DNA from: Coraliomargarita sp.
Lineage (GTDB): Bacteria > Verrucomicrobiota > Verrucomicrobiia > Opitutales > Coraliomargaritaceae
Reading direction: 5' to 3'
Length of the DNA: 64,000 nt
NCBI GenBank assembly: GCA_965216325.1
Contig: OZ244160.1
Coordinates: 1,600,001-1,664,000 of the forward strand
Shown: one piece after another, positions 15,001 to 20,651 of the stretch
Numbering within the stretch: the first letter of the stretch is position 1
How the letters are laid out: each line of letters begins with the position of its first letter
Position numbers: made by a program

Positions 15001-18000
15001 GCCTACGCGCTCGGCGAAATCGACGACGAACACGAGCGCAAGACAATCCAACAAGCCATCCAGCAAGATCCAGCCCTCCAGGCTGAAGTTGAAAATATAC
15101 GGAGTTTCAGCCAGCTGCTCAGCGACGAGTTGAGGTCTGAAACCAGCCCCGAGCTGAGCGAATTCGAAAAAGCACAGCTACAGCAAGAGCCCACCCCTGA
15201 GCCACAAATGGCCAATCGGCGCATACGACTCGCATGGCCTGTGATTACAGGGATTGCGGCTATCTTAGCTCTAATGCTCTACCTGAACACGTCACATGTA
15301 GAGCATATCCAATACGAAATGGCTTTTCGTGACAGCGACGCAGATGAAGTCCACGAAGAAGTTCACTACCGTATGCTAGAGGTAGAGATACCAGCCGAAG
15401 TCATCGAAGGCACACCACAGCCGATCAAAGTGCCCGGCTTGGAACCCGAAGCTACGCAAGCACCACGATTAATCGTTGCCGAAAGCAAGCCTTACAAAGC
15501 TGAGCGTATGGCCGAGATCGGCAGAGATCAGCCCGCCCCTAGTGCACCCGCAAGCATACCAAGTCAGACTTCAGTCTTAGCGAAAGGCAAAATCAGCGGC
15601 ATGCAGTCAAGCGCAGCCACAGGCGTGAATAACATTCAAGTTGCCGATGTGCCTGTCGTCTCGGCGGACATGGAAGATTCCTTTACGCTCACCGCGGGGC
15701 TTGGTGGTGTGGGCAACAATCAACCCCTAGGTGGAGCAAGAGGCAGTCTTAGCATGATCGAACCAGCAGCCGTGGCCTGCTTCATGCCACCTCCAACCGC
15801 CGAGCCAACGCCTCGCACAGAATGGAACACCGAGAAATACGATCCCATCGAAGAATCTGACTTCCGTTCGCCCTTCGTTGCGCCACTTTCGACCTTCTCA
15901 ATCGATGTCGACACCGCGAGCTACGCCAACGTGCGCCGCTTCCTCAATCAGGGGCAACTGCCGCCCGCTGATGCCGTTCGCATCGAAGAGCTCATCAACT
16001 ACTTCCCCTACAACGATGCGGCTCCAACGGAATCGCTCAAGGAAGGTGGCGATCCGTTTGCCGTTCACATGGCGCAGACCACTGCGCCGTGGAACGACCA
16101 ACACCATCTGCTACGCATCGCCCTCAAAGGCTACGAGATGCCTTGGGAAGAGCGCCCAGCCTCCAACCTCGTCTTCCTGCTCGACGTATCCGGCTCCATG
16201 AACAGCCAGAATAAGCTACCCCTGGTCAAGGACGCCATGAACATGTTGGTGCAACGCCTCGACCAGCGTGACCGTGTTGCCATCGTCGTCTACGCAGGCG
16301 CATCCGGACTGGCATTACCGTCGACTACCGCGAACAACGGCAAGACGATCGAACATGCGATCAATCAACTCGAATCCGGAGGCTCCACGAACGCCGGCGA
16401 AGGCATCGCCCTCGCCTACAAAGTTGCTCGAGAGAACTTCATCGAAGGCGGCAACAACCGCGTCATCCTCTGCACCGACGGAGACTTCAACGTCGGCCAA
16501 ACGAATCGAGGCGACCTCGCAAAGATCGCAGAGGCACAGGCTGAACAAGGCACCTCACTAACCATACTCGGATTCGGCATGGGCAACTACAAAGACGACA
16601 TGCTCGAGACACTCTCCAACAAGGGCAAAGGCAGCTACGCCTACGTCGACTCACGCAAGGAGGCTCGCAAGGTATTCCTCGAAGACCTCACCAGCAATCT
16701 GTTCAAGATCGCCAAAGACGTAAAAATACAAGTCGAATTCAACCCAGCACAAGTGTCTGCCTATCGACTTATCGGATATGAAAATCGACGCCTCAAAGCA
16801 GAGGACTTCAATAACGACCAAAAGAAGGCTGGCGACATTGGCCCCGGACACTCCATCGTTGCACTCTACGAACTCATTCCAAGCGACGTATCCATCGCAC
16901 TGCCTGAAGTCGACGCACTTCGCTACCAGCAGCATGCCAAGCCAGAGCAGCTTGATAGTGAAGTCGCCACGGTCAAACTGCGCTATAAGCAACCGGATGA
17001 AACAGTCAGTCAACTGATTCAAAAGGCCGTCCACACTACTGAGCTTACTGAAATCGACGCTGCAAATGACGACTTCCGATTCAGCGCAGCAGTCGCAGCA
17101 TTTGGTCTACGCCTCAGAGAATCAGAATCGATTGGAGACTACAGCTACGCAGAGATTGACCGCTTAGCAGCCTCCGCACTCGCCAAAGATTCCGGCGGCC
17201 ACCGCAGTGAATTCTTGGAATTGGTCCACCAAGCGAAGCAGCTGTCCCAATAGCTCAAAATCTCCTCGAGTTCAACGGTAGCGCAGCTGCGGCTCGCAGC
17301 GCACTGTATCATCTCTGGTAAATCCACACCTAAGCGCATGCGGTGCCAGAGGCACCTGCGCTACCCACTCATGGCAACTTAGCAAGGGTCTGTCTTTGTT
17401 GGAACCACCCAGTCCCGCTCCGCGATTCACCTCTCCTCACCAAAGAGCTAAAAGCTCCTCCCCTGAGAAGGGGAGGTCACCTGCTTGCCAGGTGAGAGGG
17501 GTCTCCCCGAAGGCTAGACCAGATCAAAACGCTCGATGCCCTTGCGCACGTCCGACAAGAACGCTGCGGCCCCCACACCATTCACCCAACGGTGGTCAAA
17601 GGTCAGCACCAAGGAAACCACTTCCATCGTCCCACCCTCTTTAGACTTCGGATCCGGCAGGGTAAACGGCGCGCCAATAAACAAGGTCGCCACCGAAGGT
17701 GGCACCACAACTGGTATCGCCGAGCGCACATTGTAGGCGCCCATACTTGAAATCGACAAGGAAACGCGATTCTTGGAGACAATCTCACCATGACGTGTAT
17801 CGCGTAGCGACTTATTGAATACATCAGGAAACTCACTCCACTCCAAAGCATTCGCATTTTGCACGACTGCAGTTTCAAGAACATCACCAGGCAAGGCGAC
17901 CGCAACCCCAAGATCGAGGCGCTCCGAATCGTGCATCAGCTGTCCGCCTCGAATGTAGGACGCGAAGCGCTCATGCTTCTTCATCGCCTGCACCACAGCC

Positions 18001-20651
18001 CATGCAGTCATCGTGGCAGTCGAGAGCGTGCCACCGGGTGTCTTTTTACTACGCAGCCGTGCATCGCGCACGGCTTCCCAACGGCAGGTCATATCAATCG
18101 TTGCCGGCACAATCCCTTCAAGCTGCTTAATCGCCTCCATAGAAAGACCAGCAGCCTTCTTTAAGGTATTATACGCCTGTGCCTCCTCAGGCTCAGCGAC
18201 TTTAATCGTTGCCGGCTCAGCCTTACGGCTCAGACGAAGCACCACAAGGTCCTGACCAACATTCACCTCATCGTCTTCGGCGACGTTCCACGACTCGAGA
18301 ATGCCGTCCTCATCACTCTCAATCGGGAAGACGGCCTTATCGGTTTCAACTTCACAAAGTGCATCATCGGCCTTCACCTCGTCGCCGACTTGCTTGAGCA
18401 CCGAAACCACACGCGCCACTCGAATGCCTTCGCCAAGAATCGGCACAGTGATCACCTTGGTCGACTCTTCGAGACTGGGATTATCTTCAGACATATCAGT
18501 AGGCGGTAAATCAGTTATTTGTGGTGATGGTGCAACAGAGCACTCGACATCCAATTGCAAAGCACTCTCTAAAGTAGCCGAGAGTAAACGCTCGATCGCT
18601 GCAGACACTCGCTCCTTATCCGGCAACGCGGCATATTCGTAAATCGGGTTAAAGCCGACATGCACATCTTCCTTCGACACGATGATTGGCGACGCCTTCA
18701 AGGCCTGCAACACAGCTTGATCGGAACACAGCTCTGCAACAATCATTTGCCCGACACTCGCAGAAATGTTATCTTCCTGCACAATGATCAAGCGGCCGGT
18801 CTTCTGCACCGAAGCCGCAATGGCCTCACGGTCCCATGGAGCAATCGAACGCAAGTCTATCAACTCAACATCAAGCTCAGCCGACATGCCCTCAAGCGTT
18901 TCCTCGACAAGCTCAATACAATTACCCCAAGTCACCAAGGTCAGCAACTCACCCTCGCGTACCATACGTGCTTTACCGAGCGGCACAGCTGCCGCAGGCT
19001 CTGCGACCTTCTGATCAGCCCACATCAAATGCTTGGGCAACAGAATAATCGTCGGATCCTCTCCGTGCAGTGCAGTCCAGAAAAGCCCTGCTGTATCTTG
19101 CGGAGTCGATGGCACCACCACGCGAATACCCGGCACACGTGCAAATGAGGCCTCACCCGCTTGACTGTGCCATAGCGCACCGCCAGGCAAGTAACCACCA
19201 CAGGGCGCATAAATCACCAAGGGGCACTTCCAATGGCCAAAGCTACGCCAGCGCAAGGTAGCCATATTCGAGACCAGCTGATTCCAACCAGGATAAATAA
19301 AGTCAACAAACTGGATCTCAAAACACGGCCGCTTACCATAGGATGCCAAGCCAACCGAAACCCCCATAATCGTGGACTCTGCCAAGGGTGAGTTCACCGC
19401 ACGCGAGGGATCTTTCGTGGATAGACCTTTAGTCAAGTTGAAGACGCCACCCTTAGGATCCGCAATGTCTTCTCCGAAGAAGACGACGTCGCTCAATTCA
19501 TCCATTGCAGCATGGAAGGTCTTGTTGACCGCATCAAGCATGCGACAAGACTCGCCTAATTCGATGCGAGTGTCGCTCGGGCTAGGTTCATCACCTACTA
19601 AATGTAAGGTGCTCTCATCGGCTCGTGGATCTTCGGAAGTGCTTACTTCACGATATGCCGCACGAATCTCTTCACGTAGCGCCTCTTCGCCAGCCGTCGC
19701 TTCCTCACGACTGAGCACACCTTCTTCGATCAAACGGTTTTGGTAAATGGTAATCGGATCACGCTCATGCATTGACTCCAATTCGTCAACGGAGCGATAC
19801 ATACGTTGATCGTCTGCACTCGAGTGATTGGAGAAACGCTCCACGTCACACCAGATAAAAGCAGGACCTTTTCCAGAGCGCGCATGCTCAACAGCAACTC
19901 GACCAGCTTCGGCGACTGCCTCAACGTCACTGCCATCAACACGTACCCACTCATCGCGGTTAAAGACATTCAACGCGAGTGGATTCGTCCGCTGAGTCGA
20001 TGTGCTAATTGCAATTCGGTTATCCTCTACAACAAAAACCATCGGCAAGTTCCGCTCCTTGGCGAAGCAAATGGCTTCATAAAAATCACCTTGACGCGTT
20101 GCTGCCTCACCAATCGAAGCATAGACAATATTCTGCTTACCGTCTAATTGCATGCCCCATGCTGCGCCACAAGCAGGCAACATATGCACGCCCACGGGTG
20201 AGGGATGACTCCAGATGTTCAGCTCACGATCACTAAAGTGCCCCGTTAACTGACGCCCACCACTGGACGAATCACGCTTTGCATAAAAAGCTAGAGCAAG
20301 GTCACGATCGGTTAAGCCGCGTTGTAAGCAAAAGGCCCGATCCCGATAATATGGAAAGGCATAATCATCCGGCTCCATATGTAAGGCGATCGCAGCGAGT
20401 GCCTCGTGGCCCATGCCCGAAATATGAAACCAGCCCTTTCCCTGACGAATCAAGCTCTGCTCACGAAGATCACCAATACGGCTGCGCCACAGCGTGTTTA
20501 AGAGGGATTTACGTGACGCAGCATCGAGCAGCGCCTTCGCGGATGGATCTGAATTAGGCATTGATAGTTTGTCGTGACAGGCCGGTTACATGCCTTACTC
20601 GCTCTGATAAAACGCGGGCTCTCGGCAACGAGCAAGGCTGAACAACAGCTT

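Follow-up and report, generated by a model that had tools for sequence, protein, structure and literature searches.

A one-chain E1alpha-E1beta-lipoyl-E2 protein of Coraliomargarita, a putative 2-oxoacid dehydrogenase of the branched-chain type

Introduction

The canonical branched-chain 2-oxoacid dehydrogenase complex (Thermus thermophilus, 1um9; human and P. putida BCKDH) consists of three polypeptides, with an alpha2beta2 E1 and an E2 that carries a peripheral-subunit-binding domain (PSBD). E1 and E3 are normally recruited by this docking domain. The actinobacterial 'two-in-one' 2-oxoglutarate dehydrogenase OdhA/KGD combines E1 and E2 activities in a single polypeptide, in the order E2 then E1, with a homodimer-type E1o and rigid E2-E1 contacts. 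OdhA has no lipoyl domain of its own and uses those of E2p; both E1 dimers and E2 trimers have to form, so that the homo-oligomer is closed, and in OdhA it is a hexamer (PMC10415282). The QncL system includes QncN and QncM of the quinocarcin pathway, with SclQ1-4 in scleric acid. QncL contains pyrimidine-binding, transketolase C-terminal, lipoyl and acyltransferase domains, and the ThDP-binding alpha-like part is a protein of its own, QncN. A dedicated ACP, QncM, serves as acceptor. The genes belong to a biosynthetic cluster, and the proposed donor is a ketose phosphate, which would give a C2 unit (PMC6335953).

Here we describe a gene of Coraliomargarita sp. located in a window of 64,000 nt (contig OZ244160.1, positions 1,600,001 to 1,664,000). 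Unless a contig is named, positions count from the first letter of the window.

Results

An open reading frame of 1015 aa (P0001) with an ATG start and no internal stops was found at 17514..20561 on the minus strand, to which all features below belong. The frame, its Pfam domains and its stop-free full-length orthologues define it as an E1alpha-E1beta-lipoyl-E2 core fusion. The gene was solitary, with a vWA/YfbK gene convergent to it on one side and a cNMP-binding gene divergent from it on the other. PDH (C1:1567408-1571179), OGDH (C1:2557439-2562337) and three E3-like genes were located apart from it. These positions agree with the first-pass annotation, which had described a stand-alone gene separate from the PDH and OGDH sets. 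No amino-acid or lipid gene was present in its neighbourhood, and no ACP, PKS or NRPS gene near it in the window. Contigs from the RNA library of one sample (95-99% identical) tiled 17595-20603 and spanned both the E1beta-to-lipoyl (18343-19234) and the lipoyl-to-E2 (17625-18239) junctions, which is weak evidence of expression. The 5' leader contained a conserved hairpin with a T-rich tail (20660..20693), about 100 nt upstream of the ATG.

Pfam placed E1_dh at aa 28-312 (198 bits; 19626..20480), Transket_pyr at aa 341-512 and Transketolase_C at aa 529-651 (together E1beta, 18609..19541), Biotin_lipoyl at aa 703-775 (18237..18455) and 2-oxoacid_dh at aa 793-1013 (92.5 bits; 17523..18185), the E2 fold starting from about residue 807. 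The same rows had been given in the first-pass annotation. The alpha-beta connector between the Pfam domains (aa 313-340; 19542..19625) was mostly coil in the structure model. Alignments to 1um9_A and 1w85_A supported the E1alpha part and located its ThDP/Mg motif, G151-E152-A153...D180-N181 (nt 20019-20111). His246 of E1alpha, the catalytic His, aligned with H271alpha of G. stearothermophilus E1p, whose role is described in PMC2663715. E1beta contained the ThDP-activating Glu395 and the catalytic His465, both invariant. The lipoyl-lysine, K742 (nt 18336-18338), lay in VETDKAV. In the E2 core, conserved residues were Ser/Thr 938-939 and D989-H990-R991, within FDHRW, with H990 (nt 17592-17594) as the catalytic His.

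PF02817 (E3_binding) was absent at E<=0.01 from the whole protein and at E<=1 from residues 638-1015 alone, and it was detected in both positive controls, the ordinary E2s encoded elsewhere in this genome (65.9 and 51.6 bits). The absence of this domain had been claimed earlier and was thus confirmed; the length given earlier for the tether between lipoyl domain and core, about 18 residues, was too low, as about 26 residues were disordered in the model. The E2 core scored 92.5-95 bits, while the ordinary E2 cores of the genome reached 254 and 273 bits. By sequence the core of the fusion is very divergent, with its catalytic residues intact.

The AlphaFold2 model (mean pLDDT 89.8, pTM 0.77) showed three folded blocks separated by two low-confidence linkers (pLDDT <50). 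Linker 1 (aa 670-697; 18471..18554) connects E1beta with the lipoyl domain and differed in length and sequence between orthologues. Linker 2 (aa 781-806; 18144..18221) connects the lipoyl domain with the E2 core; it was not conserved, its length being 21-34 aa within the family of the query and 52-70 aa among members of the Opitutaceae group. The top five Foldseek matches of the model were branched-chain E1beta chains, with a TM of 0.94 (on target) for the E1beta part. OdhA aligned solely through its E1 part (query TM about 0.49).

The E2 cores are predicted to form a trimer. The complex prediction scored 0.91, the best of three controls 0.00, with contact agreement of at least 71% and partner pLDDT of at least 81 in the trimer runs; residues 990-997 of one copy were placed against 940-951 of another. 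Among proteins solved as one-chain pairs 20 of 30 reached this score mark, and among those solved as single chains 1 of 23 did; from this calibration set the trimer run differed in using a custom alignment and three copies. Since solved E2 trimers exist, the pass may stem from likeness to them.

Of 401 genomes sampled across the phylum, 37 contained a stop-free, full-length fusion (48-100% identity), and nine further genomes carried it with a longer linker (46/401 in total). Because this frame recurs in 37 of 401 genomes, it is real and its recurrence is far beyond chance. Within its own family, 22 of the 25 other genomes had the fusion, genomes of only 1.3-2 Mb among them, and 71 of the 80 best public loci covered it from residue 30 or before to residue 1010 or beyond. 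The first-pass annotation had reported conservation in Opitutales; the survey bears this out, and records in Chthoniobacterales/'Ca. Udaeobacter' extend it. All 23 E2-fused sequences kept G[ED]A..DN (the full ThDP/Mg motif reading G[ED]A...[EQ]DN), H246, E395, H465, K742, S/T938 and DH[RK]990. The catalytic residues, K742 included, were also invariant in alignment A2 and were conserved down to about 40% identity.

In every carrier checked, the fusion E2 is a third E2 beside ordinary PDH and OGDH. Three E2 cores and three real E1s, belonging to PDH, OGDH and the fusion, were found in the genome of the window (all but 24,000 bases searched). Thalassobacterium sedimentorum and four of four Opitutaceae carriers checked had the same three-complex set, one non-carrier two.

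OdhA had been put forward as the only fused 2-oxoacid dehydrogenase, a claim contradicted by the characterised QncL (PMC6335953) and by the relatives of the present protein. Alpha-beta-fused E1 proteins of 625-855 aa made up 52 of the 111 rows of relatives, and one source names such a relative '2-oxoisovalerate dehydrogenase E1 component'. The KEGG entry for proteins of this kind is K11381. Other relatives follow the E1alpha-beta-lipoyl unit with FabH, thioesterase, ACP or PKS/NRPS domains, instead of or after E2. The FabH-fused form occurred in 35 of 401 genomes against 46 for the E2-fused form, and both together in none. A literature search for E1alpha-beta-lipoyl-FabH fusions returned no paper.

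Discussion

We consider with moderate confidence that the protein is an active two-in-one 2-oxoacid dehydrogenase of the branched-chain type, priming iso/anteiso fatty acids. Its conserved residues suggest catalytic competence, and it is most likely a fused E1-E2 with E3 in trans. The description 'single-chain 2-oxoacid dehydrogenase' is right for E1 and E2 and not for E3, which lies outside the chain, with three E3-like genes elsewhere. The following substrate, acceptor, oligomer and E3 route are those that we infer. Since ThDP sites sit at the dimer interface, the E1 parts would bring two chains together, and since the His/Ser active site spans subunits, the E2 cores would bring together three. 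With E1 dimers and E2 trimers on the same chain, we expect the assembly to close, either as a hexamer like that of OdhA or as a larger cage. E1 would decarboxylate the 2-oxoacid and load the acyl group on K742 of the same particle, the E2 core would hand it to CoA, and free dihydrolipoamide dehydrogenase (E3) would reoxidise the lipoyl arm without a docking domain, which would be dispensable because E1 is covalently tethered. The most likely substrates are the branched-chain 2-oxoacids formed from valine and isoleucine, with leucine as a further source. Their acyl-CoA products would serve the stand-alone FabH enzymes as primers for iso- and anteiso-fatty acids and, in some lineages, also feed acyl-CoA catabolism. 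If so, one chain makes branched starter units for the membrane fatty acids of this bacterium.

Branched-chain 2-oxoacids are pointed to as the most likely substrate by the best solved relative of both E1 halves, the Thermus branched-chain E1 1um9 (B chain 211.9 bits, E=1.5e-61 for the E1beta part; A chain 145.9 bits), and by the top structural matches. Against this, E1alpha, Thermus apart, scored higher with PDH E1alpha (Geobacillus 113.8 bits, human 112.6 bits) than with branched-chain E1alpha (P. putida 102.1 bits, human 88.8 bits). No NCBIfam equivalog reached its cut-off for the fusion; the top models were PDH-type E1alpha (201.6 bits) and E1beta (194.8 bits), both below cut-off, and not branched-chain ones. 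The closest sequence matches of the E2 core were E2p and E2o, with no E2b. These scores favour the same fused E1-E2 machine working on another substrate, be it as a second pyruvate or 2-oxobutyrate dehydrogenase or as an enzyme for 2-oxoadipate, 4-methylthio-2-oxobutanoate or aromatic 2-oxoacids, without dedication to branched-chain acids. Aspartate kinase (33/80 loci) and threonine synthase (35/80 loci), conserved divergent neighbours in Chthoniobacterales, could hint at a threonine/2-oxobutyrate link. We nevertheless think another substrate rather unlikely, as PDH and OGDH were complete in every carrier checked and carriers make iso/anteiso fatty acids. T. sedimentorum SDUM461004, whose record holds a full-length copy (L049) 75% identical to the fusion, has 14.9% iso-C14:0 and 6.3% anteiso-C15:0 (PMC11980603), and three Coraliomargarita species have 9.9-23.1% iso-C14:0 (PMC10288369). 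The 10-23% iso-C14:0 of cultured carriers fits a probable supply of isobutyryl-/2-methylbutyryl-CoA primers. Three genes of the FabH type and two aminotransferases of class IV in the genome of the window are in keeping with this. No other lipoyl-dependent candidate was found in the carriers checked; a pyruvate:ferredoxin-oxidoreductase-type gene of about 1200 aa, present in both genomes checked, makes an alternative route from 2-oxoacid to acyl-CoA possible.

The divergence of the E2 core and the domain order shared with QncL are also what would be expected of a QncN/QncL-like loading enzyme, passing a unit from a ketose phosphate or 2-oxoacid over the lipoyl arm to ACP, not CoA, for a lipid or secondary metabolite. 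One relative (P0010) has an ACP fused behind its E2 core and another (P0094) E2-ACP-KS-MT-C-A, but P0010 falls on a different branch of the clade. No ACP, PKS or NRPS gene was among the recurrent neighbours in 80 loci, and retention across the family, small genomes included, fits core metabolism. An enoyl-CoA hydratase gene adjoined the fusion in 15 of 80 loci (in four of them immediately upstream and in the same orientation), and a gene for an acyl-CoA carboxyltransferase did so in nine. Most loci lack these neighbours, which are mainly convergent to the fusion and come from related lineages, and neither reached a specific NCBIfam cut-off. As recurrent CoA-ester enzymes they favour CoA products and also speak for the branched-chain reading, and ACP loading appears improbable. 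That the protein does not work, being an artefact of assembly or annotation or a fusion in decay that has lost one activity, we regard as highly improbable. Such a state might be read from the divergent core, the missing docking domain and a ThDP motif that differs from the GDG..NN of solved homologues. The variant retains, however, the acidic residue and an Asn aligned to N202 of 1w85_A, every catalytic residue is conserved, the frame is intact in independent assemblies, and RNA contigs cover the domain junctions.

Judged by its domains, the branched-chain-type protein favoured here is a variant among fused E1-E2 dehydrogenases. Differences from QncL are the separate QncN, ACP acceptor, gene cluster and ketose-phosphate donor of the latter, none seen in the fusion. 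The alpha-beta-fused E1 proteins P0009 and P0012, inside the nine-row clade of the query, likewise join E1alpha and E1beta in one chain; they have no further domain behind the C-terminal one of E1beta, and their E2 is presumably a separate protein. The E1alpha-beta-lipoyl-FabH fusions (such as P0029, P0037, L029 and L031-L034), from the same phylum, share the N-terminal unit at 34-39% identity and all lack a PSBD; where the E2 core would be, they carry a KAS III domain, whose Cys-His-Asn triad is intact. By analogy, this sister form may tie the module family to fatty-acid priming, indirectly, since in the E1 tree the FabH-fused proteins fall into a clade of their own. Compared with OdhA, the fusion has E1 before E2, its E1 is of the alpha/beta type, and it includes a lipoyl domain as well as two flexible linkers between the blocks. 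Compared with the canonical branched-chain complex it is one chain, lacks the PSBD and has a far more divergent E2. It shares with that complex the E1 fold and catalytic residues, the lipoyl domain, an E2 core with the DHR motif and the need for E3, and the chemistry is presumably the same.

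Domain organization of the fused protein

The minus strand of the window carries at 17514-20561 a single ORF of 1015 codons with an ATG start. A Pfam scan returned exactly the domain rows of the first-pass annotation: E1_dh (PF00676) at residues 28-312 (198.3 bits against a cut-off of 22), Transket_pyr (PF02779) at residues 341-512 (103.5 bits, cut-off 27), Transketolase_C (PF02780) at residues 529-651 (69.2 bits, cut-off 25.9), Biotin_lipoyl (PF00364) at residues 703-775 (61.9 bits) and the E2 core, 2-oxoacid_dh (PF00198), at residues 793-1013 (92.5 bits). The alpha and beta parts of E1 were joined in one chain via residues 313-340 instead of being separate alpha2beta2 subunits, and we infer that two fused chains form a dimer through E1. 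The E2 core was strongly divergent, scoring 92.5-95 bits versus 254 and 273 bits for the ordinary E2s of the same genome.

An AlphaFold2 model of the query, built from a 52-row alignment (mean pLDDT 89.8, pTM 0.77), contained three folded blocks: E1alpha-beta (residues ~5-669), lipoyl domain (~698-780) and E2 core (~807-1015). The pLDDT fell below 50 at residues 670-697 and 781-806, between the folded blocks. Among orthologues these linkers were unconserved, rich in Ala, Pro and Ser, and variable in both length and sequence. The stretch from lipoyl domain to core comprised 21-34 residues in the window's own family and 52-70 residues in a group of Opitutaceae.

The E3-binding domain (PSBD, PF02817) was not detected in the whole query by Pfam at E ≤ 0.01. 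Its absence had been noted in the first-pass annotation and was borne out when residues 638-1015 were scanned alone at E ≤ 1. The absence is meaningful because the same scan detected PSBD in the E2s of both ordinary complexes of the window's genome, PDH and OGDH (65.9 and 51.6 bits). Likewise, PSBD was found in none of 38 long relatives (Pfam, E ≤ 0.001).

Catalytic residues

Conservation was followed in 23 E2-fused sequences, namely the query, 16 genomic orthologues and 6 cluster representatives, down to ~40% identity. All residues required for catalysis were kept across this set, and most catalytic positions were also invariant in a 12-row alignment (A2). The ThDP/Mg2+ motif of the query reads G151-E152-A153...D180-N181, and the pattern G-[E/D]-A...[E/Q]-D-N was kept in 23/23 sequences. 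E152 and N181 aligned with D173 and N202, respectively, of Geobacillus E1alpha (1w85_A). Thus the motif departs from the GDG...NN of solved homologues, yet both metal ligands are retained. Glu at the acidic position of the motif also occurs in human BCKDH. E395 in the E1beta part, aligned with the beta Glu of solved E1s and invariant across the 23 sequences and A2, occupies the position of the ThDP-activating Glu.

H246 in the E1alpha part aligned with H271alpha of G. stearothermophilus and was invariant across the 23 sequences and A2. H465 in the E1beta part, the counterpart of H128beta, aligned with the histidine of the HSQ motif of E1beta chains and was likewise invariant. Both H271alpha and H128beta act in catalysis according to PMC2663715, whose passages on them name catalytic rather than specificity residues. 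The lipoyl lysine, K742, was invariant across the 23 sequences and A2, lies in a DKA turn and is the predicted lipoylation site. The E2 catalytic His is H990; D989-H990-R991 was invariant in A2 and D-H-[R/K] was found across the 23 sequences. A Ser/Thr pair at positions 938-939, at the place of the Ser/Thr that the neighbouring subunit contributes, was present in 23/23 sequences; judging by the motif, one of the pair is presumably the catalytic Ser.

Distribution of the E2-fused form

In a sample of 401 genomes from the same phylum, 37 matched the query from about residue 1-16 to 1011-1015 without stops. Besides the window's own genome, they comprised 22 of the 25 others of its family, at 65-79% identity, and 14 from five further families, at 48-52%. 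Nine more genomes, all of one family (f3), matched to about residue 775-805 within frames of 1085-1580 aa, and all seven that were examined had an E2 core behind a longer linker, which brings the E2-fused form to 46/401 genomes of the phylum. A pattern scan over one genome per species gave at least 542 relatives among the 600 candidate stretches listed. Of the best 80 of these loci, 71 reached from residue ≤30 to residue ≥1010, and contig ends cut off the remaining 9. Record titles among the best 80 included Lentimonas, Coraliomargarita, Thalassobacterium, Opitutus, Lacunisphaera and Didemnitutus, and many were Chthoniobacterales, 'Candidatus Udaeobacter' or 'Spartobacteria'. Among 1.84 billion cluster representatives, 1396 matched at E ≤ 1e-30. 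Judged from its sequence, the fused gene is working and under selection, and a dead gene or an artefact can be given hardly any weight.

The window's cluster carries a single public name, 'thiamine pyrophosphate-dependent enzyme [Coraliomargarita sp.]', and the names for the family are limited to 'thiamine pyrophosphate-dependent enzyme', '2-oxoisovalerate dehydrogenase E1 component' and 'beta-ketoacyl-ACP synthase 3'. One locus (L047) had a copy with 73% identity to the gene of the window although its contig is binned as Polaribacter (Bacteroidota), which points to mis-binning. At another (L100) the fused gene was found as two consecutive ORFs.

Gene setting and 5' leader

By position, the fused gene is monocistronic. 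At its 3' end it faces a convergent vWA/YfbK gene and at its 5' end a divergent gene for a protein with a cNMP-binding domain, and the 18 flanking ORFs of the window gave no hint of a pathway. The vWA/YfbK-type protein (~757 aa, 14968-17253, plus strand) is a recurrent neighbour in the window's own family and was found at 9 of the best 80 loci in varying orientation (L041, L043-L047, L049, L094 and L120). Upstream of it in the window are genes for an ECF-type sigma factor (14429-14950) and a BLUF blue-light sensor (13832-14278).

Contigs from four RNA-library runs of a single sample, with 95-99% identity to the window, tiled 17595-20603; such contigs may contain DNA and do not prove transcription. 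Single contigs ran across the junction of E1beta and lipoyl domain (18343-19234) and across that of lipoyl domain and E2 (17625-18239). They lend weak support to expression of the fused gene. The flanks 16800-17100 and 20650-21400 were empty of such contigs, which is not evidence for transcript ends, as uncovered stretches prove nothing.

On the strand of the fused gene, ~100 nt before the ATG, positions 20693-20660 hold a 15-bp hairpin followed by a T-rich tail. The 249-nt leader folded better than its shuffles (z = -3.7) and had no match in Rfam. A similar hairpin, 13-15 bp long and with a loop of the GGTA type, was located 133-194 nt upstream of the start in 7/13 sequences, that is, in the window and 6 of 12 orthologous loci. 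In an alignment of the seven hairpin sequences, a box GGTAGTAGT just upstream of the hairpin (~20695-20705 in the window) was invariant, and 3/17 predicted pairs still paired after changes on both sides. Since no co-directional gene ends there in the window, the hairpin resembles a leader element or attenuator belonging to the fused gene. From these sequence features, the element at 20660-20693 may be an attenuator or a protein-binding site.

Fusion partners of the E1-lipoyl unit

We scanned 38 long representatives with Pfam for the domain standing behind the E1alpha-beta(-lipoyl) unit. An E2 core was found in 13 of them and a FabH/KAS III domain in 17. In one (P0034, 1091 aa) a thioesterase took the place of E2; four had no recognised C-terminal domain past the lipoyl domain and three had no lipoyl domain at all. 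Longer arrangements were also seen. P0010 (1227 aa), one of the E2-bearing representatives, has an ACP behind E2, P0094 (2895 aa, N-terminally cut), another, reads E2-ACP-KS-methyltransferase-C-A, and P0066 (1942 aa), from the FabH-bearing group, carries FabH-KR-ACP behind the E1-lipoyl unit.

The KAS III triad of the FabH domains was well preserved (Cys in 37/37, His in 36/37 and Asn in 37/37 sequences). The FastTree phylogeny of the E1alpha-beta part, with 111 rows, placed the query in a starred clade of 22 rows (9 E2-fused, 13 alpha-beta-only). The FabH-fused proteins formed a separate starred clade of 50 rows, of which 38 were FabH-fused, 3 E2-fused, 7 other and 2 alpha-beta-only. The labels of fusion type need at least 5-6 changes on this tree; therefore, fusion partners have been exchanged repeatedly. 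The FabH-fused form was present in 35/401 genomes, 33 full-length and 2 split over contig ends, and none of these was among the 46 E2-fused carriers, an exclusion that follows family lines and is a pattern, not a statistical test. A stand-alone FabH was also encoded in 5/5 FabH-fusion genomes examined.

FabH fusions were located at L029 1135-4665 (minus strand) and, on the plus strand, at L031 307-3729, L032 276-3668, L033 95-3607 and L034 200-3634. These proteins (including P0029, P0030 and P0037) are ~1090-1210 aa in size and have neither an E2 core nor a PSBD. One source is the cyanobacterium Anthocerotibacter panamensis, whose protein is named 'beta-ketoacyl-ACP synthase 3'. The arrangement suggests that the acyl group passes straight from the lipoyl arm to the ketosynthase. 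A limited literature search found no paper on E1alpha-E1beta-lipoyl-FabH fusions. An Opitutaceae locus (L028, G114:C14:9500-14000) has an ORF for E1alpha, E1beta and lipoyl domain that ends just past the last of these and whose E1_dh looks canonical (276 bits). An overlapping 608-aa frame follows on the same strand, and the arrangement may be a split or frameshifted form.

Substrate and role

The window's genome encodes three E2 cores and three real E1s: the PDH set, the OGDH set and the fused gene. This count covered the complete 3.06-Mb genome less 24 kb. Three E3-like genes were present, one of them adjoining OGDH. In each of the four Opitutaceae carriers examined, the fusion came on top of two stand-alone E2 cores; one non-carrier had two E2 cores only, and Thalassobacterium sedimentorum had only PDH, OGDH and the fusion. 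With PDH and OGDH already accounted for in the genomes counted, the fused gene is by elimination the third complex. The alpha-beta-only second E1 of some Opitutaceae was considered as the true branched-chain enzyme and rejected; only two stand-alone E2s occur there, and the second E1 therefore belongs to an ordinary complex.

By its sequence the protein is very probably a fused E1-E2 dehydrogenase that is active and relies on E3 supplied in trans. The full statement, which adds branched-chain 2-oxoacids as substrates, is on balance favoured. The acids would be 2-oxoisovalerate, 3-methyl-2-oxopentanoate and 4-methyl-2-oxopentanoate, as for EC 1.2.4.4 / 2.3.1.168, and the case for them is indirect, through the nearest solved E1s, elimination and the fatty acids of carriers. 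The closest solved E1 by sequence for both halves was the branched-chain E1 of Thermus thermophilus (beta 211.9, alpha 145.9 bits), and the five best Foldseek matches were branched-chain E1beta chains (TM on target 0.87-0.94). Even-numbered iso fatty acids are primed by isobutyryl-CoA, derived from valine, and anteiso acids by 2-methylbutyryl-CoA, derived from isoleucine; both esters are products of a branched-chain 2-oxoacid dehydrogenase. The record of T. sedimentorum SDUM461004 holds a full-length copy 75% identical to the query (L049). PMC11980603 gives 14.9% iso-C14:0 and 6.3% anteiso-C15:0 for this strain, and PMC10288369 gives 9.9-23.1% iso-C14:0 and 2.4-11.1% anteiso-C15:0 for three Coraliomargarita species. 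The window's genome contains three FabH-like genes and two class-IV aminotransferases, which fits a role in branched-chain priming. Its sole acyl-CoA dehydrogenase lies ~2.4 kb from a FadB-like gene, and having a single such enzyme fits a mainly biosynthetic use in this genome.

Several observations weigh against branched-chain substrates. Thermus aside, the E1alpha part scored higher against PDH than against the branched-chain E1alpha of P. putida or human; the E2 core was nearer to E2p and E2o than to any E2b; and the FabH analogy is drawn from the sister clade, not from the query's own. The best 25 of 30 NCBIfam families matched were all below cut-off, topped by PDH E1alpha (201.6 versus 411) and PDH E1beta (194.8 versus 454), and therefore no name can be transferred. 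Another 2-oxoacid substrate is an unlikely reading, though one of some weight. Delivery to an ACP, as by QncL, is improbable. The query shares its last four domains with QncL in the same order, but no ACP, NRPS or PKS gene is nearby. An enoyl-CoA hydratase gene adjoined the fused gene at 15 of the best 80 loci (directly upstream on the same strand at 4) and an acyl-CoA carboxyltransferase gene (636 aa) at 9, so that CoA esters are supported as products. A ferredoxin-oxidoreductase route would be a rival source of acyl-CoA: each of two genomes examined had one or two genes of the pyruvate:ferredoxin-oxidoreductase type (~1200 aa).

In the window's genome, the single-chain gene of this type (~1218 aa; G000:C1:596275-596967, outside the window) exists beside a lipoyl-dependent PDH, and T. 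sedimentorum has two. Hydratase and carboxyltransferase genes lie downstream of the fused gene in a subset of Chthoniobacterales-type loci (L054-L104 and others, e.g. L059 1-4000). Loci of this type have aspartate kinase (33) and threonine synthase (35 of the best 80) divergently upstream. A catabolic use in other lineages is plausible.

Assembly and proposed mechanism

Work on OdhA (PMC10415282) places the ThDP site at a dimer interface and the E2 site between trimer subunits, both obligate. A chain with both E1 and E2 would therefore have to dimerise via E1 and trimerise via E2. The closed particle could be a hexamer of D3 symmetry, like that of OdhA, or else a cage with tetrahedral, cubic or icosahedral symmetry; in a cage, E1 dimers would sit on the two-fold positions. 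A trimer prediction for the E2 core scored 0.91, the best of three controls 0.00. The score mark was reached by 20/30 proteins solved as one-chain pairs and 1/23 solved as single chains, a calibration from which the trimer prediction differs in using its own alignment and three copies. The runs shared at least 71% of contacts, and pLDDT was never lower than 81. E2 trimers have been solved, and resemblance to them may account for the high score. In the predicted interface, residues 990-997 of one copy face residues 940-951 of the next, corresponding to the canonical cross-subunit site.

In the model the lipoyl domain lies between two disordered tethers of ~28 and ~26 residues, and it would visit E1, E2 and free E3. 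Because E1 is covalently tethered, a docking domain would be needed for E3 only; with PSBD lost, E3 therefore would act by collision or through a contact of another kind. We propose that the E1alpha-beta-lipoyl unit could be a portable acyl-generating cassette, joined in evolution to acceptors as different as E2 cores, FabH, thioesterases, ACPs and PKS/NRPS modules. With the E2 core of the window's protein, the result would be a self-contained particle of a type without known counterpart: E2 trimers would be linked together by the tethered E1 dimers via two flexible arms carrying the lipoyl domain, no docking domain would be required, E3 would be met by collision, and the cell would have no other source of primers for branched fatty acids. 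In the FabH sisters, the acyl group would move from dihydrolipoamide to the ketosynthase cysteine, so that fatty-acid synthesis could start from a 2-oxoacid without a CoA ester. Taken jointly, the portable cassette on varied acceptors, the docking-free particle as only primer source and the CoA-free FabH sisters form a tentative scheme that we regard as rather doubtful in its entirety.

Comparison with known systems

2-Oxoacid dehydrogenase complexes are textbook non-covalent megacomplexes, in which the E2 core recruits E1 and E3 by a small docking domain. A whole bacterial lineage, including marine Opitutales and records labelled 'Ca. Udaeobacter', offers a natural E1alpha-E1beta-arm-E2 chain without such a domain. 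With the fused chain, active-site coupling and the clash of dimer and trimer symmetry could be studied in a minimal system encoded by one gene. The enzyme is also a candidate for the branched-chain primer enzyme that has been missing from Verrucomicrobiota with iso and anteiso acids. Together with the FabH-, thioesterase-, ACP- and PKS-fused relatives, it is evidence that the E1-lipoyl unit serves as a loading module, which would help in annotating pathways and engineering starter units.

The actinobacterial OdhA fusion is treated as a break with the megacomplex paradigm in PMC10415282. Only OdhA turned up in a limited literature search for a complete E1alpha-E1beta-lipoyl-E2 chain, with no paper on such a chain, and a limited search for an alpha-beta-fused E1 or K11381 found nothing relevant. 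OdhA had been taken as the only fused 2-oxoacid dehydrogenase, which does not hold, since QncL is also a fusion, of E1beta, lipoyl domain and E2 (PMC6335953).

The canonical branched-chain complex has the same chemistry as that proposed for the query, but its subunits are separate and it has a PSBD. OdhA/KGD (PMC10415282) has E2 before E1, a homodimer-type E1o and no lipoyl domain of its own. The query has the reverse order, an alpha/beta-type E1 and its own lipoyl domain, and is not of the OdhA type. QncL (PMC6335953) relies on a ThDP subunit that is a protein of its own and delivers to an ACP, whereas in the query the ThDP part is fused into the same chain.
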